Assembly (NCBI GenBank): GCA_963848325.1
Contig: CAWKDJ010000010.1
Location: forward strand, 24,689-88,688
Reading direction: 5' to 3'
DNA from: an uncultured Acidobacteriaceae bacterium
GTDB taxonomy: Bacteria; Acidobacteriota; Terriglobia; Terriglobales; Acidobacteriaceae
DNA length: 64,000 nt
The notes under the pieces were generated by a model, which saw only the letters and a list, made by a program, of their open reading frames with translations, was not told the DNA's origin and did not search any database. Position 1 is the first letter of the stretch, and every line of letters begins with the position of its first letter. Shown here piece by piece: positions 10,874 through 59,383 of this stretch. Both the position numbers and the translations under genes were made by a program.

Positions 10874-11753
10874 GTGATGCCGCTTGCAGCAGCATGGCCC
10901 CGAGTGTCGGTGATTTCGGTCATCGACATTCTGCTGGTTGCAATCATTATTTACGAGTTACTGGCATTGATCCGCGGGACACGCGCCGCACTCATGCTGG
11001 TGGGAATCGCTGCGCTGGTGATCGCCTTCTACGTGGCGCGGCTGGGCGAACTCACCACGCTGAATTGGGTCATCTCCACTCTGCTGCCCTACACGGTTTT
11101 CGCGTTGATCGTGGTCTTCGCGCCTGAGATTCGACTCGCCCTGACCAGACTTGGCCGCAGGCTCTCCCTGACTCGAGGCTCGGCCTCTGAAGACGCGTAT
11201 GACGATATAGTCCTGGCCGCAAATCTCTTTTGCCAGAACCAGACCGGCGCGCTGATGGTAATTGAAGGGGAAATCGGCTTGCGGACCTACATCGAAAGCG
11301 GCGTGCCTCTCGATGCGAAACTTTCTTACGATTTGCTCGCCAGCATTTTCCGCCCGAGCGCTCCCTTGCACGACGGCGCTGTGATCATTCAGAAAGATCG
11401 CATTGCGGCTGCGGCATGCTTCCTGCCATTGTCGATGAATCCCGTGCTCTCTACCCAATTGGGGCACCCGCCATCGGGCAGGAATTGGAGTCACCGAAGA
11501 GACCGACGCCATCGCCGTTATCGTGTCTGAGGAAACTGGCAGCATCAGCCTGGCACTCGGCGGAAAAATCGAGCGTGACCTGACCGTCGATGAATTGCGA
11601 GAGCGGCTTGGCCAACTCTTGCGGCGCTGGGTCCCTCCGGTTACTTTGCCCACCGCCATCACTAACGGGGCGGATTCCTCGGAATCGATAGAGTCGCACC
11701 GGACCATGTCGCGCACGGCCGACACGCGCGTCAATCAGGGGGCCGACCGCTAA
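10874..11753 (+). CDS. cdaA: diadenylate cyclase CdaA (DisA_N), interrupted by a +1 frameshift in a GGGG run at 11461-11464
   Basis: N-terminal 3 TM helices, then 'GALMVIEGE', 'LHDGAVII'. After the frameshift the next frame reads '[31 protein letters not shown]', the canonical DGA/RHR region. Deleting one G restores a ~293-aa protein. Confidence 0.8.
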
Positions 11754-11756
11754 CCT

Positions 11757-12428
11757 ATGCGCGACTTCTTTCGGCGCTTCGTGCTCCACAACCTTGGCTT
11801 GAAACTGATTTCGCTTGCCCTGGCTGTCGGACTGTGGCTGGCGGTTTATCGCGAACCGCTCTCAGAGGTCGCGATCGACACCGTGATCGAGTTCGAGAAC
11901 ATGCCGGCAAATCTCGAAATCAGCGCAGAGAGCATTCCCAAGGCGGAGGTCCGGCTTCGCGGCCCGCAGCGGGTCGTGCGCCGTCTGCAGGCGTCGGAAG
12001 TCTACGCGGAAATCAACCTCGAAACCGTAAGGCCCGGCGACCGGACTTATGACCTGACGGCGCAGGAGATTCATCACCCGCAGGAATTGGAAGTCGTACA
12101 GGTCGTGCCCAGCCAGATTCACCTTTCGTTCGACACTCGGATCACTCGCCAAGTGCCGGTACGTCCGCGAGTCATTGGGACTTTCGCGACCGGTTATCAG
12201 ATCGGCCACATCCAAATCGATCCGCCGAACATCACGATCATTGGCCCCAAGAAGCGAATCGAAGCGGTGGAAGCGGCCACCACCGATCCTATCGATGTGA
12301 CTGGCGCAATCAGCCGCGTCACCTTTACGCGTCATGCGTACGTTTCCGATCCGCTGATTCAAGCCACAAGTTCCGATCCGGTGCACATCACAGTTATTAT
12401 GGAGAACGCCGCCACTCATGGGCACTAG
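11757..12428 (+). CDS. cdaR: CdaA regulatory protein CdaR (YbbR-like domains)
   Basis: Single N-terminal TM helix followed by YbbR-like repeats. Sits in the conserved position between cdaA and glmM. Confidence 0.75.
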   Translation: MRDFFRRFVLHNLGLKLISLALAVGLWLAVYREPLSEVAIDTVIEFENMPANLEISAESIPKAEVRLRGPQRVVRRLQASEVYAEINLETVRPGDRTYDLTAQEIHHPQELEVVQVVPSQIHLSFDTRITRQVPVRPRVIGTFATGYQIGHIQIDPPNITIIGPKKRIEAVEAATTDPIDVTGAISRVTFTRHAYVSDPLIQATSSDPVHITVIMENAATHGH

Positions 12429-13818: not shown

Positions 13819-13862
13819 AACTCACCTTTGTCACCGGCGACCAAGCAGGCGCTACAGAAGTT

Positions 13863-13960
13863 TTGTCATTTCGAGCGGAGCAAGATTGGCCGCTCGCGCG
13901 ATGCTCAACATTGTCATTTCGAGCGGAGTATGATTGGCCGCTGGCGGCCAATCTGCGAAG
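13863..13960. repeat. two tandem copies of a ~33-48 bp unit (TTGTCATTTCGAGCGGAG[C/T]A[A/T]GATTGGCCGCT...). The second copy ends in a perfect 10-bp-arm palindrome GATTGGCCGC-TG-GCGGCCAATC (13931-13952)
   Basis: Direct inspection: 31 of 33 identity over the shared core. Lies immediately downstream of the glmM stop. Confidence 0.5.
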
Positions 13961-14509: not shown

Positions 14510-14723
14510 CATGCCTGCCATGAAACAATCGAGTCGTCGCAAGTTCAGCAAGGGCGCATCGAAAACCGTTGCTAGCGCCATGCGCCGCAAGAAACATGGC
14601 ACTCTGCGTTCCGGGAAAAGCGGCCACGGCGGAAAAGTAAAGAGCCGCAAGCAAGCTATTGCCATCGGACTTTCCGAAGCGCGAAAAGAGGGTGCGAAAG
14701 TTCCAAAGAAAAAAGCGGCATAG
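14510..14723 (+). CDS. small highly basic protein (71 aa), function unknown
   Basis: ATG preceded by a GGAGG Shine-Dalgarno. Sequence 'MPAMKQSSRRKFSKGASKTV...GKVKSRKQAIAIGLSEARKEGAKVPKKKAA'. Confidence 0.5.
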
Positions 14724-23554: not shown

Positions 23555-25159
23555 TCACGGAGCAGAGGCTTTGACGGCGAATTGCTGTCCGGTCACCGGC
23601 GTGAGAAACGGAATGACATAAGACTTGATGTTTACCGGCCCAGCGGCGCTCGCCTCCACCCACAGGTTGTATTTGAAATCTCCGCGGCTGAATGCCTCGT
23701 CGCTCAACCGAAAAGTGACCATTTGATTGGCAGAATTGTGCAGTGAAACCTGTCCTGCAGCTTCGTTCCTGAGAATCAGAAGAATCTCCCCGCTGTGCTT
23801 TTCGGTTCTGTCTTTCGCTCCGGAATTTTCTTCCTGATCTTCACGCTCTCGGCCTGGATCGCGTTCTTGCTGGGGAAGCTGGAACGCGGGAATAAATCGG
23901 CGGGCACTGGCGAGATTGGTCGGCGGAAAATTCCCCGACCGCCAGGCCGCGTCGGGGATGTCGCTCGGGCCGGCGAAACTTGCGGAAACGATCAGGAAGT
24001 CGCCAGCTTTCAACTCGCGTCCGTTGCCCTGGATGCTCAACTCACCAATCGTGACCGGAAGCGCGATCAGATTCGGCCCTTCCTGCAAGAACAAGGGCCG
24101 TGCCCCAGGCAGGACATCGTCGGGAACGCTCAGGTAAAGCGCGCCCGTGGTTTCGGCCACGATTGCCGCAGGACAGTTCATCGAAAGCTGCAAATATCTT
24201 GTGGCTGTCGCCACCGAACGATCCTCCGACCAGGCAAAGCTCGCCCTTCATGCACAGCACCGGCGCTTGAAAGAGGTTTGAGGCGCCATGAGATTTTGCC
24301 TGGCGCCCCAGAACAGGCAGCATCGCGGAAACGGAATGTTCCGGGTCGACCGATTGCTGAAGCGTGATTCTAAGCTGCGCTCGTTTGCGTGGAATGATGA
24401 AAGTAATCGGGCCATCGGCTGGTTGCGCCGTTTCCCCTTCCACCTCAACTTGCAGACTGGACAACTGCAGCGCTCCGAATTCTGAGGGAACGGTAAAATG
24501 CACGACTTGAATTCCCGGCACATCCGTGAAGTTCTTCGCGTCAGCCACTACGGTGCCAGACACTCGCTCACCAGGACGAAGTTGCGCTGGCAATAACAAA
24601 CCGATGTCCGGCAGCGTTGCAAGGTTCGAGTGGACAAACTGCGCGTGGCCAGTGCTTAGTCTTTTTCGCGCCCCTTCGAGATTCTTCATCACTTCTTCAT
24701 AGGTGAATTTTGGGCCCTGCTCACTTCCGCCACCACTTTCTTCTTCCCCGGCGGGACAAGCGACGGATCGATATTTTTGAAACTGGGCGTTCCAGTCAGC
24801 ACAACGATAGACCCCAGTCCGAGGATCGTGCGTCAGCTTATGTCCGTCGACTTGTTTGCCTGACTGATCGAAAACCTGAATGAACTCACCGATGAAATTC
24901 GTGCTCTCGTCGTAGGTGTGTCTCACAATCTTCTGGGCCTTGCCTCCGGGCCAATATGTGGTGTCGGTTTGCTGGGGCCCGTAATGGCCGCGAACATATT
25001 CGTAATCGGATTTCTGTTGAATGCCGCCGTCTGGCAGCCAACGGTGCGCATTTCGGTGACTTTGCCGGCTGCATTGTAGTCGGTCTCGATCCGTCCCCCA
25101 ACTCCGTTCTTTTCAACTACAGTCCGCTGGGCGAACGCAATTACGGAGAGCGTGACCAT
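23555..25159 (-). CDS. secreted protein of unknown function, read across three frames (at least 2 frameshifts near 24930-24990 and 24050-24210)
   Basis: Signal peptide 'MVTLSVIAFAQRT'. Three consecutive same-strand ORFs in shifted frames without intervening stops. Confidence 0.45.
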
Positions 25160-25376: not shown

Positions 25377-26739
25377 TTATTTATCCAGAACCCGCTGCTT
25401 GCCAATGTCGATGCCCAACTGCTCTGCTTTTTTGTACAAGTGGCTCCGTTCCAGTCCAAGAGCTTTGGCAGCATTCGTGATATGAAAATTCTGCCGCCGC
25501 AATTCTGCCAGGATAGTTTCGCGTTCAAATTCCTGCACCCGGTCGGCCAACGGCCCTGTGCTCTCCGAGCGAGACTCGCCGGCAGGCAAGGCCGACTGGA
25601 CTGTGCTTGACGAGACCTGATCATTTTCCGCAAGCAGCATCAAGCGTTCCACCATGTTGCGCAGTTCCCTTACATTCCCAAGCCACGGAGATTCGGTCAA
25701 CAGGCGAATTGCCTCGGGAGAGAAGGAAATGAGCTTCCAGTTGTTCTGGGCACAAATCTGGCGCGAGAAATGTTCGATCAAGACCGGGATGTCATCGCGG
25801 CGTTCGCGCAACGGCGGCAGTAAGATCGGGAAGACATACACGCGATGAAAGAGGTCTTGCCGAAACTTTCCTTCGCGCAGCAGAACTTCGAGGTCGCGAT
25901 GGGTCGCGACGAGCACGCGGGCATTCACGGCAATGGGCTTGTCGCCGCCAATACGCTCAATCTCGTTTTCTTCCAGGACGCGAAGCAGCTTGGCCTGCAT
26001 GGCGAGCGGCATATCGCCGATCTCATCGAGAAAAATCGTGCCGCCTTCGGCCTGCTCGAACTTGCCCTTATGGCGACCCGCTGCGCCGGTGAATGATCCC
26101 TTTTCGTGCCCGAAAAGCTCCGATTCGATGAGTTCGGCTGGAACTGCGGCGCAGTTCAGAGTGATAAATGGCCCGTTCGCCCGTGGACTGCGCTCGTGCA
26201 ACGCACGGGCAATGAGTTCCTTGCCCGTCCCAGTTTCGCCCAGGATGCACACTCGCGATTCGCTGGCTGCAACCCGCTCCACCTGGGCCATGATTTTTTT
26301 CATGGCGTCGCTGACCCAAACAATTTCGTGCTTGCCGAGACGCTGTTTGAGATTGCGATTCTCCGCCTCCAGGCGCTGGAGTTTGAGTGCGTTCTCCACC
26401 GTGAGCAGCAGCCGGTCGGTCGAAATCGGTTTCTCCAGAAAATCGAGCGCGCCGAGCTGCGTGGCACGCACCGCCATCTCGATGTGGGCCTGTCCCGACA
26501 TCATTACAATCGGAATCTTCACTTGCTGTGATCTCAGGTCTCTCGAGAAAAGAAAGGCCATCTTTCCCGGGCATGACCACGTCGGAGAAGATCAGATCGA
26601 ACTCTTGCGACTTTGCCAGCTCCAGCGCCTTGGCTGCATTGTCACAAATGGTTACTTCGTGCCCGGCCAGCCGGAAGGCGCGAGAAAGCGACGCCAGGGT
26701 ATTGGCTTCGTCATCGACGACGAGAATGTTGGCTCTCAA
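25377..26739 (-). CDS. sigma-54-dependent response regulator (NtrC family), frameshift near 26536-26550
   Basis: The REC domain 'ILVVDDEANTL...DLIFSDVVMPGKDGL' continues in a second frame as 'RDLRSQQVKIPIVMMSGQ', then AAA+ 'GETGTGKE', 'ESELFGHEKGSFTGA' and a C-terminal HTH. The shift falls in a T-rich run. Confidence 0.8.
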
Positions 26740-28575: not shown

Positions 28576-29932
28576 GGCTTCGCCGCCCCTAGCCAGATGT
28601 CGGGCAATTTCCAGCTTCCATCATGCGTGTCCTGCCAGTCCCTAACCGTTTTAGACACCGCCCAGGCCGTTCGCAGATAAAGCAGCGGAATCACGCGCCC
28701 CGATGTCACGATCGATGACTCCGCCTGGTATAAAGCGTCGGCGGAGTCGCCAGAGAAATTAGGCGGCGGAAGGCCGAGCGATCTGGCGAGTTCCACCAGC
28801 GCAACCCGCGGATCGAGCGACTCGAGTGGAATTCGCACCAGGCGAATGTCGGGATTGCCCTGATTGCCGAGTTGCAAGCGAAGGCCGGCGTCGCCCGCAT
28901 TGAGCGCAATTCGCTCGGCGATCACGTGGGCGAGCGGATCGCTCGGGTCGAAATCGAGATTCCACAACGCAGCTTGTGGCACCTCGGCCCGCAACTGCTG
29001 GGCGCGAGTCAGATCGGCATTGACGGCGAACAGAAAACCGTATCCCGTCAGCCAATCCGGCAACAACCCGCCGGCAGGCTCACCTCCGCCCTGCAGGACG
29101 ACCCGATTCAGCAGCGCCCGATCGATGCTGAGCGAAAGCGCCTGCCGTTGTTTCGCCTCTTCGGGCGTTTGAACCTCGCGAGTGAAGAGCAAAGCAACTA
29201 ATTCGATCGGTGCCGATGGACGCAGTTGCCGCGCTTCACTGGAGTGGTGAGCCTGGCCGCGAGAACTTCAATGAGCTGCGATTGACCGAGATCATACGCA
29301 ATCGTCTGCTCACGACAATTCTTGCCCATTTGGATTTCGACCGAATCGAGAAATGGACGCCCGCCCCAGTAATCATCGCGCGCCGAGAGAACAAGTCTTT
29401 TTTCGTCCCACTCAGTGATCACAAACGAGCCCGTGCCAATCGGCTTGCCAGCATCGACTTTCGCGATGCTATTGCGCGGCAAGGCCAGTTCGGCGGGCAG
29501 GTCAGGCGAGGGTGTATCCAACTGAATAACGATTGCAGTATCGGACGAAGTGACCTTCCAACTCGGGTTCACTCTGCGCAACGAGGCAGCGACAGCTTCC
29601 GGCGTCATCGGACTTTGATCGGAAAATCGGACGCCCGGTCGCAACACGAACTGCCATCGCCGATTGCCTGGATCCGACTGCCACGAGATCGCCAAGGCCG
29701 GTCGCGGTTGGCCGCGGTCGTCCAACGCTACCAGCGTGTCGAAGATGAGCGCAAAAATGTTGCGCGAAGCGAGCGTGTATGACCGATTGCTCTCCGACGG
29801 ATCGACCGTGCTGATGCTTTCAGCTGTTTCAATGTGCAGAGTTCCGCCGTAGTGCGGGCGCGTCGCCGCTACCGCCGAGCCAGCCATCAGCAGACTACTG
29901 ATTGCAATCGATTGAAAGCTTGTAAGCTTCAT
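28572..29932 (-). CDS. family-5 solute-binding protein (SBP_bac_5, peptide/nickel-binding fold), frameshift near 29195
   Basis: Signal peptide 'MKLTSFQSIAISSLLMAGSAVAA', then N- and C-terminal halves in two frames. Confidence 0.7.
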
Positions 29933-31114
29933 ATTTGCCTGTTTCGACGTTGCGCGAGATCGCCATCGCGCTGCCAGACTCTGTGTCGCTCCACAAAGCG
30001 GTAATGGGGCCAAGAAATTCCACGGCGGCACTGACCGGGACTGGATCGCGATCCGGAATTTCGAAAGCCTTCACATTATCGGCGGGACCAGCTTCGTTCG
30101 ATGTGACCAGAAGTTGCCAGCCGGCGCCGCAACCGCTTCGCAAGCTGGCAACGTTGCTGCCCCAGCCCAACGGAGTAAAAGCGCGGTTTGAAACACCATC
30201 CAGCAGGTGCACTTGACCATCGACGGAGGCGAAAGCCCACAGCGTATATTTTTCTCGCGGCATCGAAGCTGCAGAATAAAACGCCGGCGCGATAGTTTGT
30301 TTTTGGATTCCCGGCGAAAGTGCTCCGGTAAAGAAATTTCTGGTTGACGAGAAAAAGGCATTGAGCCCGTCGGCGTCTCCCGTCAGTGGCCAGGGATCGT
30401 CCGAATCGTTGCAGCTCACACTCAACGGTACAGCGGCACCGCTGCGGCAATACACTCCGGGCAAATAGGCGTCAAACAGATGGTCTTTGCGAAGCAACAA
30501 TCGACCGCGCAGATCGCGTGGCCAAGGTCGAACGTGGACCAGCGGCAGCACTTGCTCGAGTTGCCAATGATCGTTTTGCAGGCGGTTGAGAATAATCTGC
30601 TCCGGTTCAAGCACGATCATGGTCGGCGGATTGCTATTGACCACCGCCAAATCGAGGATGCGATTTTCATCGCTCCACAACAGCGCCTTGTGAATGGAGA
30701 GCGGAGTGGAAGAACGCAAAGGCGCAGGCCCGCCCGCTCCCGGCAGAGAAACCATCGCGATTTTGATTTCGTTAGTTCCCTGATCGGCATCTCGGCGACC
30801 CATAGATAGTTCCGCAGATTTTCGGAAAGCGTGATCTGCACGGTTGCGACGGCTTGATCCGAGGTCGCAGGCTGTATACCGAGGGCGTTGAGTTCAGTCA
30901 GCAGCCGTCGGCGAATGTCCTCTACTTCAGACGACTTCAGAGAAGAACGATTGACGACCGTGACCGAAACCGCGCCCGGGCCGGTGATAGAAGAAATCTT
31001 CCGCGCCAACTCATCGCTCGGCGCTTGCCAATCTCTCGCTCGGGAGACGCTCGCGAACAGCAACACCAACATTACGCACGAAGCCGCTCGCCGGACCCCA
31101 ACTGAAATTCGCAT
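29895..31114 (-). CDS. secreted hypothetical protein, frameshift near 30775
   Basis: Signal peptide 'MRISVGVRRAASCVMLVLLFASVS'. Continues in a second frame with no stop in between. Confidence 0.45.
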
Positions 31115-36382: not shown

Positions 36383-39300
36383 ATGTCATCCGTCCGCAAT
36401 TGTGTTGCGTTCGTCCTCTTCTTCTGCGCCACCCTGACTTTCTCGCAGCAACTACAGGAAGGCCGGCTCATGCGCTTTCCTGACATCCGTGGCGACAAAA
36501 TCGCTTTTGTTTATGGCGGAGATATTTGGCTGGCTTCGGCCCAGGGCGGCGCAGCGCGCCGCATCACTACCGCTCCCGGCCGCGAGTTGTTTCCCAAGTT
36601 CTCGCCTGACGGCAAGTGGCTCGCCTTTACCGGACAGTACGACGGCAACTTCAATGTTTATGTCATGCCTTCCGATGGCGGCGGCCAGCCGCGCCAGCTC
36701 ACCTTTTGGCAGGGTGCCGAAAATCAGCTCAACGACCGCATGGGCATCCACAACCAAGTGATCACATGGACGCCGGACAGCAAACGTATCCTCTTTATAT
36801 CTCGCCGCGACGCCTCGAACGGCTGGATCAAGCGCCAATTTACCGTCTCGGTCGACGGCGGCTTGCCCGAGCCTTTGCCTCTCGACCAGGGCGGGCTGAC
36901 CTCGTTCAACGCCGACGGCACCAAAATCGCCTACAACCGCATCTTCCGCAACTTCCGTACCTGGAAGCGCTACACCGGCGGCCTGGCGCAGGACATTTAC
37001 ATCTACGACATCAAGAACAATATTTTCGAGCAGCAGATTCCGCACACCGACTACACCGATACCTTTCCCATGTGGCACGGCAACACCATCTACTTCACTT
37101 CCGATCGCGGCCCCGAACATCGCCTCAATATTTATTCCTACGACCTCGGTTCGAAGCAGATCGATCAACTCACCCACTACACCGACTTCGACGTGATGTG
37201 GCCGAGCCTGGGCGATTCTTCCATCATTTTTGAAAATGGCGGATATCTCTACGTGATGGATTTGTCCTCCCATCAAGCGACCAAACTCTCTATCACCTTG
37301 CCTGGCGAGCAGGACGCAGCCATGAAGCACTGGGCCAGCGTGAGCAAGCTCATCACTGATTTCGATATTTCGCCCGACGGCAAGCGCGCCGTCTTTGCCG
37401 CTCGCGGCAACGTCTACACCGTTCCTGCCAAAGATGGCCCGACCCGTAACCTCACGCACTCTCCGGGCAGCCGTGAGCAGAAAGTTGCCTGGTCGCCGGA
37501 TGGGCGCTGGATCGCCTACGTTTCCGACCGCACCGGCGAAGATGAGATTTACATCACGCCACAAGATGGCATGGGGAACATCGACCTGGGCAAAGCGCCC
37601 GAGGCCAAGGATAAAGACAAAGAGAAGGACAAGGATAAGGATAAAGATAAAGCAGCCGCCGACAACCAGCGCGGCAAGGACAAAGAACAGCAGATCACCA
37701 GCGGCTACAAGGGATTCAAGTTCGGCCCGCAGTGGTCACTACGACAGCAAGAAAATCGCATGGGCCGATAAGGACCTCAAACTCTGGTACATCGATATCG
37801 ACGACAAGAAGCCGGTTGAGGTCGATCGCGGCAAATATGCCGAAATCACGAATTATTCCTGGTCGCCCGACAATAAGTGGATCTGCTACGACAAGCAATT
37901 GCAAAGCGGCATCAGCGTCGTCTATCTATATTCGCTGTCTGACAAGAAAATCACCGCCGTTACCAGCGAACTCGCCAACAGCTACGGATCGCTCTTCGAT
38001 CCTGAAGGCAACTATCTTTATTTCCTCTCCGATCGCGACTTCAACGAAGTTCTCGGCAACATCGATTTTGAATTCGCCAATCCGAAAACCACGCGACCTT
38101 ATCTCGTGACCCTGAAGGCCGAGACGCCGTCCCCGTTCCCCGCGCTGAGCGACGAAGCCGCTGTCAAACGCGAAGCGCCCGCGCCGGAAGCCTCGGAGTC
38201 GGACAAGTCGAAGAAAGACGACGACAAGAAGAAGTCCGACGACAAGAAAAAGGAAGAAGCAAAGCCGGACGAGAAGAAAGAAGCCGCCGAACGTCGCGAA
38301 GAACTTTCGCATCGATCTCGACGGCTTGCAAAATCGCATCGTGGGATTGCCCGTGCCTCCCGCGAGCATTGTGAGCATTCTGCCCGCGAAAGGCTTTCTC
38401 TACTATCTGACCCAGCCGGTTCAAGGCCTTTCCGGCCCAATTCCCGGCGAAGAACCTGCGCTTCATTCCTACGATTTCAAGGAGCGCAAAGAGAAAACGG
38501 TGATCGAAGGCGTCGATCACTTCGCCATCTCCTTCGACGGCAGCAAGATTCTCTATCAGGCAAAGGGCCCGGTCTTCGGCATCATCGACGCCAAGGGCGA
38601 CGCCCCGAAGAAGCCGGGCGATGGCGCGTTGAACCTCGGCAATCTGCGCGCTGAAATCGATCCTCCGGCCGAGTGGAAGCAGATGTTTAACGAGGTCTAT
38701 CGGCAGGAGCGCGACTTCTTCTTTGAAGCCGCCATGAACGGCAACAACTGGGACGCCATTCGCGACAAGTACGCGCCGCTCGTTCCTTACGCCGCCAACC
38801 GCTACGACCTGACTTACATTCTCGGCGAGATGATCGGCGAACTTTCTAACTCGCACACTTATGTTGGTGGAGGCGACCAACCCGATCTCCATCCCGTGAA
38901 CGTAGGCTTGCTTGGCGTGGATTTCGAACTCGACGCCACCAGCGGCCTTTATCGTTTCAAGAAGATTTATCCCGGCCAGAACTGGGACCCGGCGCTGCGT
39001 TCGCCGCTCACCGAGCCGGGCATCAACGTAAAGGAAGGTGACTACCTGCTGGCAGTCAACGGACGGCCGCTGCACGCGCCGCAGGACCCCTACGAACTCT
39101 TCGTCAACACCGCCAATGAGACCACGGCCATCACCGTGAACTCGAAGCCCAGCGACGAAGGCGCTCGCACCGTGCCGGTGAAGCCAGTCTCGGACGAAGG
39201 CGCTCTGCGCGAATACAACATGGTGGAAACCAACCGCAAAAAAGTCGACGCCGCCACCGGAGGCAAGGTCGGTTACATCTACATCCCGGATATGGGCGAC

Positions 39301-40018: not shown

Positions 40019-40385
40019 ATGAACATGACTCCAACCTTCTCCGGCCGCATGGTCGCTCACAACATGGTCACCACGCAGTTCGAACTCGACGGATTCCGCG
40101 TCGTCCGCACCCTCGGCGTGGTGCGCGGCATTGTAGTTCGCTCGCGATCGATTTTCGGGACCATCGGCGCTGGATTGCAAACTCTGGTCGGCGGCAACAT
40201 CACTCTGCTTTCGAATTTGTGTGAGAAGACGCGCGCGGAAGCTTTCGACCTGATGCTGCAGCACGCCGCCGAACTCGGAGGCAACGCCGTCGTCGGCGCA
40301 CGCTACGACGCAACTGAAATCATGCAGAGCGTGACCGAAGTCCTGGCCTATGGGACCCGCAGTCTTCGTCGAGCCAATCCGATAA
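40019..40385 (+). CDS. YbjQ/UPF0145-family protein, C-terminus restored by removing one C from CCC at 40356-40358
   Basis: '[27 protein letters not shown]', then the +1 frame gives 'AVFVEPIR*', matching the family C-terminus. Confidence 0.6.
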
Positions 40386-40675: not shown

Positions 40676-42091
40676 ATGACGAAGCTAAATGGACTGAGAA
40701 TTATTCCCGCCGTACTCTATCTCTGCCTCGCGACTACGATCACCACGAGCGCCCAAGGCTTCAAAACCCTGGTGAAATTTGACGGGACCGACGGGGGATG
40801 TCCGAATGGGGGCTTAGTGCAGGGCCGCGACGGCAGCCTCTACGGCGCAACTTATTGTAACGGAGCTGACGGCGAGGGCACGGTGTTTAGAATGACCCCT
40901 CGCGGCGTGATAACCACCCTTTATAGCTTCTGTTCCCAGTCCGGGTGCCCTGACGGTTATGGTGCCGCGTGCGGGACTGGCCCTCGGCACCGACGGAATC
41001 TTTTATGGAACGACGACCCAAACCGCGAATGTTGGCACAATCTTCAAGATCAACGTGAGGGGAGAGCTTACGACTATTTATCGATTTTGCTCCGTGAAGA
41101 ATTGCCCCGATGGCTACACTCCCTATGCGGGACTCGTCCAAGGTACAGATGGGAATCTTTACGGGGCAACAGAGTTTGGGGGAGTGCCCGAGGGAGCTTG
41201 CAATTTTGACGCCGGCTGCGGAACGATCTTCAAAATTAGTCCGGCGGGCAAACTGACCACGCTGCACAACTTCGAGGGGGGCGACGGTGCCAACCCTACT
41301 AGCACTCTGATCCTAGCTACTGACGGCCGATTCTACGGCACCGCGGGATCCTACGGAAATCCCCCATATGTGGGGACGGCATTCGCAATTACATCTCAGG
41401 GTGAATTTGCCACACTGCACAACTTTACTTCAGCGGAGGGCTATCCGAATGGGGTGATTCAAGGCAACGACGGCAGCTTCTATGGGAACCACATTCGAGG
41501 GCGGAATTGGCGGGGGTTCGGTGTTCCGGATGACGTTTGAAGGAACAGTGACGACCATCTACAGCTTTTGCGCGCAGGATGATTGTCTCGATGGCAGCCT
41601 TCCCAGCGACCAGCTAGTGCAGGCCACCGATGGGAATTTCTACGGCTCTACGCGCTTTGGGGGCAATTACGACCGTGGAACCATTTTCCAGCTCACGCCC
41701 GCCGGGATTCTTACCACCCTTCACAGCTTTTGTAACCCCCAATCTGGGTGCGGTGATGGTGCTTTACCCGAGGCCGGGTTGTCTCAGTCAACAAATCGGA
41801 CCGTTATACGGGACAACCAGCTACTTCGGTAGTTCGCTTGGAACGATTTTCGGGGTAAATATGGGTCTCGGCCGGTTCGTCTCCTTCGTTATGCCGGTCG
41901 GAGCTGTCGGGCGGTCAAGGTTTAACCGGCACGACCGCGGTGGCGATCAACGGCGTTCCCGCGAACTTCAAAGTCGTTTCCGATACATATCTGACCGCAA
42001 CCGTTCCCCCCGGCGCTACCAGCGGCTACGTCACCGTCACCACGCCCATCGGCGTGCTAACCAGCAACGTGCCGTTCCGGGTGATCAAGTA
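40676..42091 (+). pseudogene. decayed paralog of the secreted beta-propeller-repeat (GloVer-like) + IPT/TIG protein family
   Basis: Intact GGAGG Shine-Dalgarno, ATG and signal peptide. The repeats 'DGxLYGTT..GG..GT[IV]F[KR][IL]T..G.LTTL[YH]SF' are spread over four or five frames (shifts near 40975, 41488, 41795 and 41905). The 41905 lesion includes a ~17-bp deletion relative to the paralogs. Confidence 0.7.
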
Positions 42092-42128
42092 AATTTGCAG
42101 AAATTTTGAAAGATGAAAGAGGCATGCC

Positions 42129-43547: not shown

Positions 43548-43572
43548 AATGCGTGCTCCAGGAGGAGACCGC

Positions 43573-45687: not shown

Positions 45688-46052
45688 CAGAATGCCGATT
45701 GGTTGCGGACTTACCGCCGGACGCGTTGCCCATAGATTCCCAGTGTGTAATCGCCAAGAATAACCCTCCCAGCTGTCTTTTTCTGTGACCGTTCGACATC
45801 GCCGAAAACCATATTCATGTGGAAAAGTTTTGGCTGCGCCCGCGTCCCGTTCCTGCACTCAATGGCAAGCGCTGCGTTTCGGGGTGTGAGGAGATGTTTT
45901 CCTCCTGAGGGCAGAAAATGCGGCAAGTCTACTTTGCTGAGCCCACGAAAGTAGTGCCCATCGCCATCAAGTGCTATCCACGCCGGTGGATCACCCTTTC
46001 CAAGTCTTGTGAGTGGCTGGGCTTCTGACTATTCTGCGCAGGTACTTGGAAA

Positions 46053-49120: not shown

Positions 49121-49137
49121 GGACAAGGTGAATTCAG

Positions 49138-50749
49138 GTGGCAACCGCAATCTTCGACAATTACCCGCCGGATGGGCGAAATAGGTTTCCTTCGCGATTA
49201 ATTCCCGGCGCACACGCGTTCAACGGAGCACTGCCTCGCCGAAAAGCGGCCTCCGCAGCTATTGAAGCGAAAATATGGGAGTGGCCGGGAGACCTCTTCC
49301 GCCCACCCCGGCTTTCATTGTGGCGAAGGATCTTCGCCGCGGTGTTGCCGCAGCCCGCGACTCGAAATCTGCGGCTGGGGTTGGCGATGGCTGTAGTTAG
49401 CGACTTCTTCATCATTCTTGTCAGCTTTCTGACGTGCGGCATCTGTTTCGCATTTTTCCGTTCTTCCCCGCTCTCGTATTCCGCAATTTTTCCACGCGCC
49501 GGTCTCAGCACGCTACTTTTATATGGCACAGTCTTCACTTTATTGGGGTATTCCGAACGTCTTTATCAGCCGGAAACGATTCGGTCGCCGTCTCGAGAAT
49601 GCTCGCTTCTTGCCAAGGTAGCTGCCTGGTCGACGGCGATGGTGGTCGCGATCTTTGCAGTTTCCATGACCCCTGAGGTGCCCGGTTCTTAACCTGGCCG
49701 CCAGTGCTCCCCTCAGCTGCCTGCTCATGCTTGGAGCCAGGTATTGGCGTCGCAGATCGTGGAGAACAAGTAGAGCCGGAAGTCACGTCAGGAACGTGCT
49801 GATTATCGGGGCTGGAAAAGTGGGCCGCGACCTGGCTCAGCGCTTGCAGCAGGACCATCCGCGACAACGAATCGTTCGCGGATTTCTCGATGACGAGTTT
49901 CCGACCGGTGGCGATATTCACGGCTGCATCGCCGATCTGGCCCGCGTCTCGCGCCATCACTTCGTGGATGAAATCATCCTTGCCATCCTCCCGCATTCTC
50001 AGGCGGCAAAGCGAGTAATTTCCGAGGCGCGGCGCAACCGGATTGACGTAAAAATTGTGCCTGACCTACTGGGGTTTGATCCGGCCGGGGTCTCATTCGA
50101 AAACGTCAACGGCATTCCCCTGCTCACTCTTTGTGAAGAACCGGTGCCAACGGTGGGCCTGCTATTCAAGCGGACAGTAGACGTGATCCTGTCCACATCC
50201 GCATTGGTACTCTTTGCTCCGCTCTTCGGAGTGATTGCCATTGCGATCAAACTGGACTCGCGAGGAGCGGTGCTCTATCGCGCAACGAGATTGGGCCGTA
50301 AGGGTCAACGTTTCGAATGCTGCAAGTTCCGCACAATGGTCGCCAATGCCGACGCGATCAAAGAAACACTTCGCGCTCTGAACGAACGGCAAGGCGCGTT
50401 CTTCAAAATCTCCAACGATCCGCGAGTCACCCCAGTCGGCCGGATCCTCCGCCGCTACAGTCTCGACGAATTGCCCCAGCTTTGGAACGTTCTTCGCGGC
50501 GAGATGAGTTTGGTCGGTCCGCGGCCCCATCCGCTGGACGACTTCGAGCGATATCGAGTGGAAGATTTGCAGCGCCTGGAGATCACGCCCGGGTTAACGG
50601 GATTATGGCAGGTCATGGCACGGCGCGATCCGTCATTCGAACGCGGAATGATGCTCGACCGCGATTACATCGGCCGCTGGAGTCTCTGGATGGACTTCAA
50701 GATCATGTGCCGGACAGTGGCCGTCGTGTTGCGCGGAGAGGGAACATAG
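49138..50749 (+). CDS. initiating polyprenyl-phosphate sugar phosphotransferase (WcaJ/EpsL 'bacterial sugar transferase' family), frameshift near 49690
   Basis: TM N-terminus in frame 1. The C-terminal catalytic domain 'VLYRATRLGRKGQRFECCKFRTM...LPQLWNVLRGEMSLVGPRP' is in frame 2. Confidence 0.8.
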
Positions 50750-50751
50750 CG

Positions 50752-52076
50752 ATGCCGGCGATCGAACAAACCGCGCCACGAAGTCTTGCCTGCGATTTGG
50801 TCGCTGGGACGATCTTAAGCGGATTTCGCCCCCTTCAAGCAATGATCGCCGCCCCGCCAATTTTGTTCATGGCGGTCATGGGATTGATGCTTTTTCATCC
50901 TCCTGACTACCGTTTCCCCCCCTATGACCGGATTGCGTTTCTGTTGCTGACGTTCATCGTCGGCTTGCGCACCTGCATTCTGAGAAAACGGGTGGTGGTT
51001 GGCGGGCCCGTGACCTGGCCCATGCTTGGGCTGGTCGTGCTGGCACTCGGCGGAGTTTTGGCCCAGCCCTACGATCCCGAAACCTGGAGCATGTTTGCCG
51101 CCAAATGGTTCTTGCCATTCGCCCTGTTTGCATTGGCCGGCCATATATTCGACAGTTCGTCGTCTCTACGGCAATTCGAAGTTTTCTCCCTGATCGTGCT
51201 CGGGTATCTGGGTCTAATCGCGATTTTTTTCCTGATCGGCACCAAACAGTTGATCTTTCCGCGTTACATTTTGGATGAAGGTCTGGGCATCCATTCGACC
51301 GCGCGCGCGGACCTTTTCTACAGGCGGTTGCCAACGGAGTAGCACTCAACATTCTGGGATTGGTCGCCCTGGATTCATTCCGTCGAAAACGCCTGCGCAG
51401 TGTACTGGCTCTCCTTTTATTGGCCGGATTGCCGCTCGCGATTGTCGCCACCCGGACGCGAGCAGTCTGGCTATCGTTTGCAGCGTCGATTCTCGCCCTG
51501 TTGATGTTCAGTCCAAGCCGCCGCTTGCGCCGCGCTTGCCTGGCCACTGCTCTCGCGGGAATTTTGGCCGTTCTTCTTTTGGCTGCGTTTGGAGACGGGC
51601 ATCGGTCGTTGAGCGAGCGGCTCGAGGATAGCAGTCCGGTCAGGTTCCGCATGGCGGTCTACGAAGCCGGATGGGAGATGTTCCAAAAGAAACCGCTAAC
51701 TGGATGGGACGCCAAGGCAATGCAGGCCGAGCTTGCCAGCCGCATCAGCGAATTTCACCAGGAGCAGTATTACTTCCACAACACTTTCCTTGAGGTTTTG
51801 GTGCAGTACGGGGTAATCGGATTGGCTCTCTATGTCTGGTTGGTCGTGGACCTCTTTCGCATTGGACGACTGCTACCTGGCGCCGCCGAACCGGCCGGGA
51901 ATTTTCTCGACCTGCGGTTCCGTACAGTTTGGCCAGTAATCCTGATGGTCTACGTCGTCAACAGCATGTTTGTGGTGATGAATTATCAGTTCGTCAACGG
52001 TTTTCTGTTTACCATGGCGGGAATGCTGGCGGCGCAAAATCGCAAGCATTGTGGAGAGCAGAATGCCGTCCGCTGA
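50752..52076 (+). CDS. O-antigen ligase / Wzy-like polymerase family membrane protein, frameshift near 51330
   Basis: Multi-TM with the Wzy_C-like 'HNTFLEVLVQYGVIGL'. ATG 50752 lies 2 nt after the sugar transferase stop. Confidence 0.7.
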
Positions 52077-53439
52077 AACTACCTTGCCCCAACCATGCTC
52101 TGCCAAAGCAGAGGCCGTCCTGCGTCCAGAAAGTAGCGCTGCGATCTCCAGCCAAACCATGCGTGGAGGCGTTTACCTGGCGGCGCGATATGGCCTGGGC
52201 GTGCTGGTCAGCATCGCAAACATGCTGGTTATGACCTGGTGGATCGGCCCACACGCTTACGGATTATTCGTTTCAGCCATTGGCATTGCGGCGTTTCTCG
52301 CGACCCTCGCCCGGCTGGGAATCGACACGTATCTGGTACGAACTGAGAGAGCCCAGACGCCCGGATATACGGGACAGCCGCAACCCTCATTTTGGCCGCG
52401 TCCCTGGTGTTGGCCGTCGCGGGCGCAGCGGCGACACCATTGTTGGTTCGCTGGTTCGGTAATCGGGAATTTGTTTTTCCGTATCTCATCTTGCTCCTGA
52501 CGATCCCCGTGACCGGGCTCACCGGCGTGCCCATGGCACGACTCGAGCGCGCGTTGGATTTTCAGCGGATTGCCGCCATCGAACTCTGCAGCCAGTTTGC
52601 CGGACTGGTCATGGCAGCTTTGCTGGCATGGCGGCACGCCCAAGTGTGGGCGCCGGTCATGGGCCAGGTTGCCTGGCAGGTATGCACATTGCTTGCGGTG
52701 CTCGCCTCTGCGCCCCAACTGTGGCGGCTTCGCTTCAATCGGGAAGAAGCACGCAAGATGCTTGCCTACGGCATGAGCCTGACCACTTCGCTGCGCACCT
52801 GGCAGTTGCGGACCTTGGTGAATCCCCTGCTAGTTGGCCGATTTGCGGGGGCTGAAGCCGTGGCGTTCGTGGCCCTTGCCATCCGCATTGCGGAAGCGCT
52901 CGGCACCTTCCGGCTGGCCGCGGGCAGAATGGCGATCGCGGCGCTCGCTCGATTGCAGGCCGTCGCACCGAGTTTCGCAAGGCGCTCGAACAGGCACTCT
53001 ACTTGCAGGTCATTACGCTAGGCCGCTCCTATGCGCCTTTGCTCTGTGCGGCCCATTCATCGTCCGGCACTTCATCGGCGTGCGCTGGATGCCGAGCCTG
53101 GCCATCTATCCATTCGTCGCCGCCGGCGTTCTAGTCAACTCCATTTACAACCTGCAGGCTTCAGCTCTGTTTGTCATCGGAAAATCGCGCGTTGTCACGA
53201 AAGCTTACACCGCCCATGTTCTGATACTCGCTCTGACTACCATTTTTTTTGTGCCGAAGATCGGCATCGCCGGTTACGGCTGGGCTGAACTGGCCGCTTG
53301 TGCCTCTTATCTCGTCATCCATGCAGGTCTCGCGCGCGACTTGACGATCTCCTATCGCAGGCTCATTCCCTGGATGGGCGCCTTCGCCAGTTGCCTGCTG
53401 GTGGCTTCCAGGTTCCGTTTAACTGGTCTGGTGGGGTGA
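52063..53439 (+). CDS. Wzx-like polysaccharide flippase (Polysacc_synt/MOP family), at least 2-3 frameshifts (about 52370, 52975, 53045)
   Basis: GGAGAG Shine-Dalgarno. 12-TM-like hydrophobic profile spread over three frames with no stops between. Confidence 0.65.
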
Positions 53440-53452
53440 GGCGCACTTCGCT

Positions 53453-54727: not shown

Positions 54728-55935
54728 GTACAACTTTCCCTTCAGCGGCACCGAAGTTTATCTCTTCGAACTGATGGGCCTTTTGCGTTCACGTGGACAC
54801 GAAGTGGCTCTGTTCTCCATGGCCGACCCTCGCGGCGAAGCCACGCCCTTCGACGCGCACTTTGTTCCTCACGTTGACTTCAAAGATTCGACTGCGAGCT
54901 GGACCACGCGGGTCAAACTCGCAGCCCATGCCGTCTATTCAACGGATGCAAGAGGACGACTGCGGGCCCTGCTCACGACATTCCAACCGGACATTGCGCA
55001 CGTTCGCAACATTTATCACCACTTGTCGCCGTCTATTTTGTGGGAGTTGAAGGCACAGGGTATACCTGTGCTGTACCATCTCAACGATTTCAAGCTGCTC
55101 TGCCCTGCCTATAACCTGGTGACCAACGGGCGAGCCTGCGAAAAACCGTGTACGGGAAAGTTTTGGAAGGTCCGCACACAAGGCTGCTACGAAGGGGCGG
55201 CAAGCACGGCGGCGGTTCTGGCGGCCGAGGCTTTCTTCCACCATTGGATGGGAACTTACCGGAAATGCCTGGATCACATTCTCACGCCCAGCCAGTTCGC
55301 GAAACATTTCTTAGCAGAACACGGTTTCGACGGTCACAAGATTTCCGTTCTGCCTCATTTTCAGAACTTGCCTGCCTCGTCGCCGCCCCCTGTTGCCGAG
55401 GACGCGCCGATTCTCTACTTCGGCCGGCTGTCGCACGAAAAAGGTGTAGCCGACCTCATCCATGCGATGCGCGCATTGCCGCAAGTCCGGCTGCAAATTG
55501 CCGGGCGTGGACCGCAGCAGGGTGAACTCGAGCGTCTGGTCAAAATTCTGAATTTGCAGAACGTCGAGTTCCTCGGCCATTTATCAGGTGAGGCTTTGGA
55601 GCAGGCAATCGCGACTTCGCGCTTCACCGTTTTGCCTTCGCATGCCTACGAAACCTTGGGCAAGAGCATCCTCGAGTCCTACGCCTGGGAACGCCCGGTT
55701 GTAGCGTCCGATTTAGGCTCGCGCCGCGAGTTGGTGCCGTCCAAACGAAACCGGACTTCTGTATGAACCCGGAAATGTCGAGCAATTGGCGAAAGCGATT
55801 TCTATCCTGGCCGAGCAGCCCCAACTCGCGGCGGAGATGGGCAAGGCCGGGCGGAAGTTCGTCGAAGCAAATCACAACCCGGAAAAGCATTATGCGCAAC
55901 TGCTGCGGCTTTACCAGCAGATGACCGGGCACGCC
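54705..55935 (+). CDS. GT4-family glycosyltransferase, frameshift at the AAA run at 55749-55751. The 3' end is ambiguous
   Basis: 'YETLGKSILESYAWERPVVASDLGSRRELVPS', then the next frame reads 'ETGLLYEPGNVEQLAKAISILAEQPQLAAEMGKAGRKFVEANH'. There is no stop before the next GT in that frame. Confidence 0.65.
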
Positions 55936-57132
55936 TGCAGTCGTTCACGCCGTCAGCCAGTGCGGGTTGCCTTTATCGGCGGGCGCGGCGTCATCTCGAA
56001 GTACAGCGGAATTGAAGCGTATTACGAAGAAGCCGGCCGCGAACTCTCAGCCCTGAACTATCAGGTCACCATTTACTGCCGAAACTACTTCACTCCGCCG
56101 ATCACCAAGCACAAGGGGATGCGGCTGGTGCGGCTGCCGACTCTCCGCTCGAAACATTTTGAAACCGTGATTCACACTCTGCTGAGCACGCTGCACGTAA
56201 TGTTCAGCTCGAACGACATCGTGCATTACCACGCGCTCGGTCCGGCGCTGTTTTCTTTCCTACCCCGTCTCGCCGGGAAGAAGACGATCGTTACCGTGCA
56301 AGGCCTCGATTGGCAGCGCAAAAAATGGGGACGCCTCGCTGCCTTCACGTTGCGCCTGGGCGAAATGGCCGCGGCGCGGCTGCCGAACTCGACCATGGTC
56401 GTCTCGAAAACTTTGCAGAAGTATTTCCGCCAACGCTATGGCATCGACGCGGCTTACATTCCAAACGGCGCCGTGCTTCGTGAGCGGAGCAGCCCTGCGT
56501 CTCTTCCTAAGTGGGGACTCGACGCCGGCAAGTACGCCCTCTTCCTTGGTCGCTTCTCGCCCGAGAAGAATTGCCACTTGCTGATCGAGGCATTTGAAAA
56601 CCTCCAAACTCCGGCCAAGCTGCTGCTGGCTGGCGGATCAAGCCACACGGACTCTTACGCTGCCAACCTGCGGCGACACGAAAGCGGCCAAATTCACTTT
56701 CTCGACTGGCTCTCTGGCGATGCCTTGAACGAAGCTCTGACCAACGCCGCACTATTTGTCTTGCCCTCCGATCTCGAAGGGCTATCGCTGGCGCTGCTGG
56801 ACGCAATGGGTGCCGGCGTCTGCGTCCTGACGAGTGACATTCCGGAAAACCGCGAAGTCGTGGATGGCGCGGGCTTCACGTTTCGCGCCGGCGACGTGGA
56901 TGACCTGTCCCGGGTGATGAATCGCCTGCTGGCCGATCCTGAAATCCGTGCCGCTGCCGGGCGTAGCGCGCGCGATCTGATTCGAGAACATTATCTCTGG
57001 CCGAACATTGCTGGCCAGATCGCTCAGGTATATGAAGAGGTGCTAGGCCGTCCGGCAATGGGTGTTTCTAAAATGAAATCGAAAGCCACTTCGGCCGATG
57101 CAATCGCTGGGAAATCCAAGCGCGTGGCCTAG
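55921..57132 (+). CDS. GT4-family glycosyltransferase (the start is ATG 55921 or GTG 55960)
   Basis: 'RVAFIGGRGVISKYSGIEAYYEE' N-terminal GT-B motif. C-terminal 'EGLSLALLDAMGAGVCVLTSDIPENREVV'. Confidence 0.75.
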   Translation: MTGHACSRSRRQPVRVAFIGGRGVISKYSGIEAYYEEAGRELSALNYQVTIYCRNYFTPPITKHKGMRLVRLPTLRSKHFETVIHTLLSTLHVMFSSNDIVHYHALGPALFSFLPRLAGKKTIVTVQGLDWQRKKWGRLAAFTLRLGEMAAARLPNSTMVVSKTLQKYFRQRYGIDAAYIPNGAVLRERSSPASLPKWGLDAGKYALFLGRFSPEKNCHLLIEAFENLQTPAKLLLAGGSSHTDSYAANLRRHESGQIHFLDWLSGDALNEALTNAALFVLPSDLEGLSLALLDAMGAGVCVLTSDIPENREVVDGAGFTFRAGDVDDLSRVMNRLLADPEIRAAAGRSARDLIREHYLWPNIAGQIAQVYEEVLGRPAMGVSKMKSKATSADAIAGKSKRVA

Positions 57133-57154
57133 GTGAAACGCAAAGGGGGATCGC

Positions 57155-58476
57155 TCAATTGGTTCGCAGCCAAGGCCAGTGCACCTGCACCGTTCGCGAT
57201 TCCCAGAGCACGTAGACGATCAGCAACAGCATTTCCGGCTCGATCAAATGCTTGTATCTCGCGTATGGGCTCACAATGTAATAAGGCAGCGGATAGATCA
57301 GCAAGAAACACGCCAGCAGGTACGCCGCCGGCTTGCCCCGCTGATACGTCAGCCATAATCCTGCAAAGGCGAACGCAGCTTGAAGGAAATAATTCATGTG
57401 CCGCGAGATGTTGAAGTCGTAACCGGCAACGATTGAGGCCTGCGGCGGAGAAATCCAGAAATATAAGGCCCGCTTCAGCGTGAACTGCAAGAACCTGCCT
57501 GGATGCTCGCGAATAAACTGCCGCGCCTGCTGGCCTTTGTCGGCCATAAAACGCGCCTCGCCCATCTCGTGAAACTTCTCCATCGCCCGGCGGTCGTTGG
57601 CGGGATGTTCCTCGCGGTGCCGAGAAGCCGGCCGACTCTTCGTTATTCGACATGTAAAGTTCGAGCGGCAGATTGTCACGAACAAAAATAAACTTGCCGA
57701 ACACGCGATAGTTGCGCACCAGCCACGGACTCACCACGGCAAAGGCAATGCCAACGCACAACACCGAACTCACCAGCCAGGCGGAGCGATTCGGCGCACG
57801 ATATAGCAGCCACAGTAGCGAACACACGAACATTGTAGTTAGCGAAGGATTGGTAAGAATGATCAATCCCCACAGCAGACCGAACTTAACCCAGCGGGCG
57901 CGGGCCGGACCCTCAGCCAACTCAAGCGTCCAGAGCAAAGCCAAGCTGAGCAGGAAAGCGCTCAGGCTGGTGTCATACACTACGCGCACTGGCCAATAAA
58001 TAAGGTAGGGAAAAACCGCCCAGGTCCCACGCGGCCGCGCGAGCTACGCCAAGCCCATAAATCTTTTCGCCGATGCGGTAAACCGTCCAGCAAGTCAGCG
58101 CGCCGAAAACGCTGTTAAATGCCAGAATCATCCACGCCGAAGTCGCGCTGTACACCCCGAATACTCTGAAAATGCCAGCGAGGATGTAGGTATAAACGGG
58201 AGGCATCCAGGCAGTCGGGCCGCCAGGAAGATCGGTCGGCGAACTGAAACCGCCGCCAGTGGCAATCGACCGCGCGATGCGGCCAATCTCCCAGGCAAAC
58301 TGGAAGTGATCGCCACGCGGTGTGATGCGGTAGGTGTGCCCGACGGTGATGACCGCAAGCCGGAGCAGCAGCGCGACAAGCAGGATAAACCAGATCGAAC
58401 GTCTCAGCGGCCGGCGGACTTCCGAAATCCCGGATGCATCCTCGTTCGCCAGTCCGCTCTCGATCCGCCCATTCAT
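57155..58476 (-). CDS. GT39/ArnT-PMT-family (GT-C) membrane glycosyltransferase, 2 frameshifts (about 57980 and 57650)
   Basis: Polytopic N-terminus 'WFILLVALLLRLAVITVGHTYRITPRGDHFQFAWEIGR...' continued in two further frames. Confidence 0.6.
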
Positions 58477-58595
58477 CGAGCCGACTATAGCACGGCCAAA
58501 CTGAATGCACGCCGCGCCGCAATCCTCCCGGCTTGCAAGTGAGGAGGAGCGGAACGCACTTCTCTATCGCCAGCGTTAATCTTTTTAAGAAATTG

Positions 58596-59383
58596 TTATT
58601 CCTGCCGCCAGATAGCGAGACCGCTATTACCTAGAGAGAGCGCACCCAAGCCAGCACCGATCAAGGCCTGACTCTCGTTGGGTTGGTCAGGGTCGCGACC
58701 GCTGGCCGGTGTAATATTGGCTGCCTCGCCCGCAGCGATCGGCTTGTCCGCGTCCGTCTCATACGCGTAGCCGGTCATGACGCGCCTGTGCAGTAGCTGC
58801 TAACATTCAGGCGCGCCCATCCATAGTGTGTGGCTCCGTCGATGAGAAACTTGAAGCCGAGATATCGACGGGTGGCTCCGAGCCAGGGCCAGAGCCCCCC
58901 CTGCTCGCCACCCTGGGTGTTATTACCAAAAGCGGAGAAATCTGCCATCATCTGCTTACCCGCCTGAAACGCAGCCTCGGGACCGATGAGTGCTCGTGGG
59001 GCGAGGGCAGCCGCCCAGGCGCGTCCTTTCACTACAGCGGACTCCACCATGTTTGAGGGTTGAGCTCCGATTGCATACACACGGCGGTACAACAAAAATG
59101 TTCCCTCCAGAGGCTTGGTTCTAGGACGCAAATTCCTGTAGGTGTAGTAATAGCTGATCTGAAAATCCACAATTCCATCGTGGTTGAGGTCGATGTTCAA
59201 AACCGTATTGGCGTTTATATGTTTGTGCACCGGCGTGTACAACACTTCTGCCTCAGCCGGTTGGGTGAGTGCCAAGACCCCGACGCCGGCTGCTGTCGCC
59301 GCAGTCGTGTATGCATTTAGAAGGCGCTGCAGTGAGTGGGAGACCTTCTTTGGGCTGGGTGAGAGAGAGGCAGACAAGTTCAT
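58596..59383 (-). CDS. secreted protein with a possible PEP-CTERM-like C-terminal sorting signal, frameshift near 58778
   Basis: N-terminal signal peptide. The C-terminus is '...PDQPNESQALIGAGLGALSLGNSGLAIWRQE*' (a Pro/acidic motif, then a hydrophobic helix, then a short polar tail). Confidence 0.4.

Follow-up and report, generated by a model that had tools for sequence, protein, structure and literature searches.

In one nanopore benchmark about 70% of the consensus errors were located at Dcm CCWGG motifs (Wick, Judd & Holt 2019, PMC6591954), the cytosine modification in these motifs being unfamiliar to the basecalling model, and methylation-induced errors persist as 'ambiguous positions' with R10.4.1/Kit 14 (Lohde et al. 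2024, PMC11610573), where PCR or demodified DNA, newer models and masking have been advised as cures. Homopolymer-length indels, i.e. bases added to or removed from a run of at least three identical bases (PMC6591954), are described by Sereika et al. (2022, PMC9262707) as the classic nanopore consensus error; they fragment open reading frames (ORFs) by single-base frameshifts and are cured by polishing. In this work we analysed a 64-kb window (the whole stretch of DNA under study, from contig CAWKDJ010000010.1; G+C 54-59%) of an Acidobacteriota genome, in which many genes are broken by single-site indels, hereafter called lesions. The lesions co-locate with the palindrome GGWCC and are not shared with a second assembly which, judged by its sequence, represents the same population. 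It is very probable that they are consensus errors of a long-read metagenome assembly, most probably made from Oxford Nanopore reads, and that these errors are concentrated at GGWCC.

The lesions resemble the errors at Dcm CCWGG sites (PMC6591954) in that they have survived consensus building and polishing, cluster in a 5-bp NNWNN palindrome, affect a fraction of the motif sites and vary between assemblies. They differ in that the motif is GGWCC, the host is an uncultured acidobacterium, and both the modification and the platform are ones that we infer; CCWGG itself is undepleted in the window (observed/expected ratio, O/E, 0.98). With the ambiguous positions of R10.4.1 they have in common that miscalls are linked to a motif and that not every site is erroneous, those errors being strain-specific and found in native DNA. 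Like homopolymer-length indels they fragment ORFs by single-base frameshifts, but unlike them they show no preference for runs and spare the long ones.

Frameshift lesions and their repair

A self-trained codon-usage scan in six frames showed many places at which the coding potential moves to another frame of the same strand without an intervening intergenic gap. Frame-by-frame translations of the window were scanned against Pfam, which placed the N-terminal, middle and C-terminal parts of the tricorn protease in three frames and the pieces of Wzy, Wzx and a GT4 glycosyltransferase in different frames. Relatives' DNA was obtained as two contigs with tricorn homologs, 80 metagenome loci surrounding the intact GT4 and 80 GTDB genome loci surrounding TreY (best match 74% protein identity; these served for homolog ORFs). 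The relatives' ORFs were compared with the window by tblastn and a custom frameshift-aware protein-to-DNA dynamic programme was then applied at each junction; DNA alignments to three close-relative contigs (L165, L166 and L168) were added. This detection covers frame-breaking errors only, and substitutions are under-counted.

In total 23 lesions were found, 16 insertions (one of them of 2 nt) and seven 1-nt deletions, in 15 of about 47 genes and all within 11,461-58,778. Four fall in a GloVer-like repeat protein, three in Wzx and two each in a 558-aa secreted protein, the tricorn protease and a PMT_2/GT39-like protein, whereas cdaA, an NtrC-type regulator, an SBP_bac_5 solute-binding protein, a 422-aa secreted protein, ybjQ, a GerE/LuxR regulator, a sugar transferase, Wzy, a GT4 and a PEP-CTERM-like protein have one each. 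The genes at 1-11.4 kb and 59-64 kb appear intact, with full-length Pfam matches. The lesions are listed below with their strand and with the evidence for each, in part as high-scoring segment pairs (HSPs) from tblastn.

11461..11465, plus strand: lesion A in cdaA, one extra base, GGACC→GGCACC or GGG→GGGG; DAC domain split between frames (profile 5-84 in frame +2, 81-118 in frame +3); the 14 other members listed for the cdaA 90% cluster are all full length with one common reading across the site
24173..24177, minus strand: lesion V in the 558-aa secreted protein, one extra base with no evident GGWCC; the alignment to L168 has a 1-nt gap at 24175; repaired protein covers 540-570-aa homologs at 98-100%
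25035..25036, minus strand: lesion T in the 558-aa secreted protein, two extra bases, 2-nt gap against L168 at 25036; GGTCC→GGCTGCC with the motif deduced, L168 itself having GGCCC
26539..26543, minus strand: lesion B in the receiver domain of the NtrC-type regulator, one extra base, GGACC→GAGACC; alignment 26541; Response_reg split into 1-63 and 60-110
29255..29258, minus strand: lesion C in the SBP_bac_5 solute-binding protein, one base missing, GGWCC→GGCC; alignment 29257; SBP_bac_5 split into 2-162 and 215-276
30785..30789, minus strand: lesion D in the 422-aa secreted protein, a deletion of one base with no GGWCC; alignment 30787; collinear HSPs in frames -1 and -3
37737..37742, plus strand: lesion E in the tricorn protease, one extra base, GGTCC→GGTCAC, by frameshift-aware alignment; HSPs stop at 37738 (frame 2) and resume at 37743 (frame 3)
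38290..38293, plus strand: lesion F in the tricorn protease, an insertion of one base (GAA[C]GTC) with no GGWCC; seven homologs place it at 38292
40353..40358, plus strand: lesion G at the C-terminal end of ybjQ, an extra base at GGACC(C) that adds a false 40-aa tail; relatives have 121 aa and align only to 40357, the public gene call being the 161-aa version
40962..40965, plus strand: lesion H in the GloVer-like repeat protein, extra G, GGTCC→GGTGCC; eight HSP pairs from frame 2 to 3; motif candidate 40964 restores CPDGYGPRAGLALGTDG
41484..41488, plus strand: lesion I in the GloVer-like repeat protein, extra base, GGACC→GGAACC or GGGACC; alignment 41484, six homolog segments
41795..41798, plus strand: lesion J1 in the GloVer-like repeat protein, extra base immediately upstream of an intact GGACC at 41798; alignment 41797
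41903..41907, plus strand: lesion J2 in the GloVer-like repeat protein, one extra base, no GGWCC; alignment 41903-41906
45724..45729, minus strand: lesion S at the N-terminus of the GerE/LuxR regulator, GGTCC→GTTGCC; 1-nt gap against L165 at 45728
49678..49681, plus strand: lesion K in the sugar transferase, extra G, GGTCC→GGTGCC; 31 homolog HSP pairs from frame 1 to 2; L165 has GGT-CC and an uninterrupted gene
51294..51297, plus strand: lesion L in Wzy, one base missing, GGACC→GACC; 57 homolog HSP pairs; alignment 51295
52343..52352, plus strand: lesion M in Wzx, one base missing at a deduced GGGACC; alignment 52345; L166 is longer by 2 bases
52958..52961, plus strand: lesion N in Wzx, one base missing, GGNCC→GGCC; alignment 52959; base present in L166
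53020..53024, plus strand: lesion O in Wzx, one base missing, GGACC→GGCC; alignment 53021; L166 reads GGCACC, 2 bases more than the window
55735..55738, plus strand: lesion P in a double GT4 (first module), extra G at 55736, GGTCC→GGTGCC; 52 homolog HSP pairs; alignment 55737-55740; homologs read ...RELV/RPNETGLLYEP (slash at the lesion), and exactly the G at 55736 is missing from L166
57616..57620, minus strand: lesion Q in the PMT_2/GT39-like protein, extra base, GGACC→GGCACC on the coding strand; alignment 57617
58024..58028, minus strand: lesion R in the PMT_2/GT39-like protein, one extra base, GGACC→GGGACC; alignment 58026
58774..58778, minus strand: lesion U in the PEP-CTERM-like protein, one base missing, GGACC→GACC; placed without a homolog alignment, by the frame switch in translation and the motif candidate 58775/6, with a 262-aa ORF after the edit

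An initial annotation of the window had reported pervasive single-base frameshifts in about 20 genes. The frameshifts are borne out by split Pfam domains, HSP frames, DNA alignments and repair, and every gene that it named is affected, but the count is 23 lesions in 15 genes and includes the GerE/LuxR regulator (45728), which was not on its list. The exact positions that it gave at 11461, 40356 and about 41488 are correct, whereas its 'AAA at 55749' is really the extra G at 55736, according to both homologs and L166. A further frame change, from 3 to 1 at 50737-50762, was rejected as a lesion, being the out-of-frame shadow of an overlapping upstream gene in stop-to-stop ORFs.

For lesion F the placement by tblastn was blurred because a tricorn linker rich in K/D/E, of low complexity and of varying length among homologs, lies at 38200-38290; the site 38292 was set by a homolog with identical flanks (P0005, KEAAE/VAKNF, both flanks as in the window). 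In the region 40676-44976 there are three tandem paralogs of a secreted repeat protein of about 470 aa with FYGTT-type repeats, the first copy with four lesions and the other two intact; the two intact copies have a weak C-terminal IPT/TIG match that is below cutoff.

When 24 single-base edits were made at the 23 sites, all 15 genes became uninterrupted ORFs of homolog length and 0 in-frame stops remained. The repaired lengths can be compared with those of homologs for cdaA (292 aa; homologs 278-294 aa), NtrC (453 aa; 466 aa), SBP (486 aa; 484 aa), tricorn (1177 aa; 1127-1184 aa), GerE (250 aa; 250 aa in L165), sugar transferase (536 aa; 531-537 aa) and Wzx (463 aa; 455-469 aa). The repaired DAC domain gives a single match (5-118/119) of 135.8 bits, compared with 74.9 + 48.7 bits while split, and single matches are likewise obtained for Response_reg (1-110/111), SBP_bac_5 (2-277) and Polysacc_synt_3 (6-291); the PMT_2 domain (3-158/160) is detectable only after repair. 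Identity to homologs is equal upstream and downstream of each lesion, as illustrated by the three tricorn segments (81/86/86%).

The repair at 54705-57132 yields one 808-aa ORF that contains two GT4 glycosyltransferase modules. Relatives likewise have this two-module ORF unbroken (L072, and L008 with 838 aa from stop to stop), and the fusion is therefore conserved and not an artefact.

Coincidence with GGWCC and comparison with other assemblies

The motif test was run on lesion positions obtained from protein homology, without reference to any motif. GGWCC within ±4 nt is recovered by one indel at 10/16 insertions (4.9% of random positions, p = 4.8×10−10) and at 5/7 deletions (background 18%, p = 3×10−3). 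Among 32 palindromic 5-mers (NNWNN or NNSNN), GGWCC, the SinI/AvaII-type recognition site, came first with 15/23 lesions; the runner-up GGSCC had 9, a set that overlaps that of GGWCC since GGCC sites can be fixed to either motif. If lesions J1, M, S and T are counted, which have an adjacent substitution or lie beside an intact motif, about 19/23 are motif-associated. The signature GGTCC→GGTGCC (equal to GGACC→GGCACC on the other strand) recurs at H, K, P and Q, was confirmed directly at K by L165 and at P by L166, and is also the likelier of the two frame-equivalent readings of lesion A.

Contig L166 (ENA ERZ25039493 contig_134097, 4,852 bp, with a Flye-style name) is 99.1% identical to window 52231-57075, from which it differs by 20 substitutions and 19 gap openings (23 gap columns). 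By this degree of identity we regard it as an assembly of the same population, one that is more error-laden than the window. The two share 0/4 of the lesions in the overlap: N and P are absent from L166, and at M and O both assemblies have the wrong length, the one too short where the other is too long. At places where the window is intact, L166 shows at least 13 other gaps that break the frame; many of these fall within its last 1 kb and several coincide with GGWCC. Its errors at motif sites that are correct in the window include GGTCC→GTTGCC, GGACC→GGCACC and partial deletions of the motif. In the alignment 16/43 differing columns were at most 6 nt from GGWCC, compared with 2.8% of all columns, and only 2/8 GGWCC sites were identical in the two assemblies. 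Contigs of a sister species (run ERR12035941, 86-92% identity) also lack the extra bases of the window at 45728, 49680, 24175 and 25036.

Near-identical matches were found among Logan contigs, each of which comes from the de Bruijn assembly (k=31) of one run (PMC12424806):

11643-13496 of the window: L169, Logan ERR11523672, 99.95-100% identical
47827-49673 of the window: L170, Logan ERR11523672, 99.95-100% identical, ending 4 nt before lesion K
47968-49337 of the window: L171, Logan SRR29081463, 99.95-100% identical

The use of these contigs as a direct read-out of the true allele was rejected, as all three end short of every lesion. For the two contigs from ERR11523672, 3/4 ends are 4-10 nt from GGWCC sites, one of them at lesion K; with about 3.6% of positions estimated to be equally close to a motif or lesion, this has a probability of about 2×10−4. 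A de Bruijn graph breaks where reads disagree and would pass through a clean real indel. The same strain is present in a second, unrelated SRA run (SRR29081463, contig L171). A tricorn fragment from yet another ENA assembly (P0261, 3045 bp) has its tail out of frame, which suggests that related long-read contigs share the frameshift problem.

According to the explanation that we favour, the organism would modify GGWCC, and the altered pore signal would lead the basecaller or polisher to add, omit or substitute a base no more than a few nt from the motif. The wrong length would then win the consensus at about 1 in 5 motif sites and, where this happened inside a gene, would break the ORF. On this reading nanopore would be the platform, modification of GGWCC would be the cause of the errors, and a cognate GGWCC-modifying enzyme would exist. 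The close relatives in GTDB include many Nanopore-only metagenome-assembled genomes (MAGs), which were assembled with Flye and one round of Medaka (PMC12313526).

Several observations weigh against this explanation. Methylation errors with R10.4.1 are almost all A/G or C/T substitutions (PMC11610573), whereas the lesions are 1-2-nt indels, sometimes with an adjacent substitution. Lesions D, F, J2 and V are without GGWCC, and M and S need an additional substitution; a second motif for such lesions (GACGTC at F) was considered and dropped as a single case. There are 69 intact GGWCC sites in the window, i.e. roughly one true site in five fails, and the lesions are over-dispersed, with none in the first 11.4 kb or at 12-24 kb (index 1.85, p = 0.02). 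The O/E of GGWCC in the window is 0.60 (0.68 after correction), which is at the edge of, and not outside, the range of relatives (0.61-1.11, median 0.83), and depletion of the motif was therefore retained only as weak support. No DNA methyltransferase domain was present among the Pfam matches of the 64-kb window. L166 was probably produced with the same error-prone technology and is hence no high-accuracy reference, and its read set may not be independent of that of the window.

It is possible, but in our judgement rather unlikely, that the errors trace a genuine epigenetic mark at GGWCC in an uncultured Sulfotelmatobacter-like acidobacterium. Because the miscalls are indels and not the A/G or C/T swaps of ordinary methylation, such a mark may be non-canonical or bulky, rather than plain 5-methylcytosine or N4-methylcytosine.

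Alternative explanations of the frameshifts

The initial annotation had explained the frameshifts by an assembly prone to indels in general, with homopolymers called at the wrong length and lesions that are extra bases in runs. Growth of a run by one base does fit some lesions (GGG→GGGG at 11461, CC→CCC at 40356 and GG→GGG at 58026), and the claim that several lesions are at homopolymers is literally true, but their number is no higher than expected by chance. The longest run touching the lesion was 1, 2, 3 and 4 nt at 3, 12, 7 and 1 sites, respectively, which follows the distribution in random 5-nt intervals (15%, 54%, 22% and 6.5%, with about 2.5% for runs of at least 5 nt), and 8/23 lesions touch a run of at least 3 nt, which matches a background of about 31%. 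Of the 169 runs of at least 5 nt in the window (41 of these at least 6 nt), none was within 5 nt of a lesion, so that the comparison of frameshift positions with homopolymer length that had been proposed as a check gave no association over the 23 lesions. Moreover, seven lesions are deletions, some insertions are between unlike bases (GAA[C]GTC, GGT[G]CC and TCA[C]TAC), and the association with GGWCC accounts for 15-19 of the 23. Extra bases in homopolymer runs are therefore an improbable mechanism for these lesions, even though homopolymer indels are a familiar nanopore error.

Errors at GGWCC also account better for the data than events in the living cell. If this were a decaying genome, or one under relaxed selection, in which the genes are truly inactivated, the interruption of almost one third of the genes in the deposited sequence, several of them accessory (exopolysaccharide and secreted-protein genes), would be understandable. 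However, a true set of pseudogenes should include nonsense mutations and larger deletions, and in the 15 broken genes no nonsense mutations, truncating deletions or IS insertions were found, only 1-2-nt indels. Conservation is undiminished downstream of every lesion, the affected genes include cdaA, tricorn and two-component regulators, full-length proteins make up 14/15 of the members listed for the cdaA cluster, and L166, at 99.1% identity, has different lesions. We therefore consider pseudogenisation very improbable, in agreement with the initial annotation, which had judged it unlikely. Real mutagenesis or population heterogeneity targeted to GGWCC, for example by self-restriction with error-prone end joining, so that lesions differ between cells, would fit their motif specificity, the differences between two assemblies of what is taken to be one population and the breaks of Logan contigs at the motif, as happens at truly polymorphic sites. 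The consensus would, however, have to contain a rare broken allele at 23 sites, conserved genes included; the occurrence of insertions, deletions and neighbouring substitutions at the same site in two assemblies (M and O) resembles ambiguity of the signal, and a known artefact explains all of this without new biology, which leaves real mutagenesis with a very slight chance of being correct. Restoration of the frames in vivo by programmed ribosomal frameshifting or transcriptional slippage has nothing in its favour beyond the frame changes themselves. Shifts of +1, +2 and -1 all occur among the 23 sites, which lie inside conserved domain cores and have no slippery heptamer in common, and more than 100 relatives have the orthologous genes as single ORFs, so that the probability of such a restoration is negligible.

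Consequences for annotation and genomic setting

The frameshifts are not a biological feature but an ordinary artefact with a useful diagnostic twist. As the initial annotation had warned, ORF-based annotation inherits the errors: the gene calls of the public record are truncated fragments, including a 217-aa cdaA and a 462-aa tricorn fragment, and ybjQ is deposited at the false length given above. About one third of the genes in the window are wrongly annotated as fragments, presumably also across the whole 278-kb contig and the MAG, and pangenome, pseudogene and metabolic inference from the public record inherits these fragments. Because the errors are located at the motif, polishing that is aware of homopolymers would fail; workable fixes are methylation-aware re-basecalling, short-read polishing and homology-guided correction at GGWCC. 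The error pattern may also give a hint, and only a hint, of the specificity of a DNA-modification system in this uncultured lineage.

By exact sequence matching, the proteins of the window were assigned to a single contig of 278,613 bp that is present in both NCBI and ENA. Homologs of the tricorn protease had a top identity of 86% and several were named Candidatus Sulfotelmatobacter. At 16.2-23.3 kb an intact glgX-treZ-treY cluster for trehalose formation from glycogen was found (CBM_48, alpha-amylase and DUF3459 domains), which is lesion-free over about 7 kb although 8 intact GGWCC sites are located between 17.4 and 23.0 kb. An island of lower GC (0.536) at 2707-5564, containing a P63C-domain protein, a transposase and a peptidase, is probably a small mobile element or prophage remnant; it includes the following features:

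3809-4663, plus strand: IS1-family transposase
4616-5239, minus strand: IrrE/M78 peptidase

The overlap of 4616-5239 with 5100-5582 was rejected as a frameshift, since the M78 peptidase and a 160-aa protein are separate genes.

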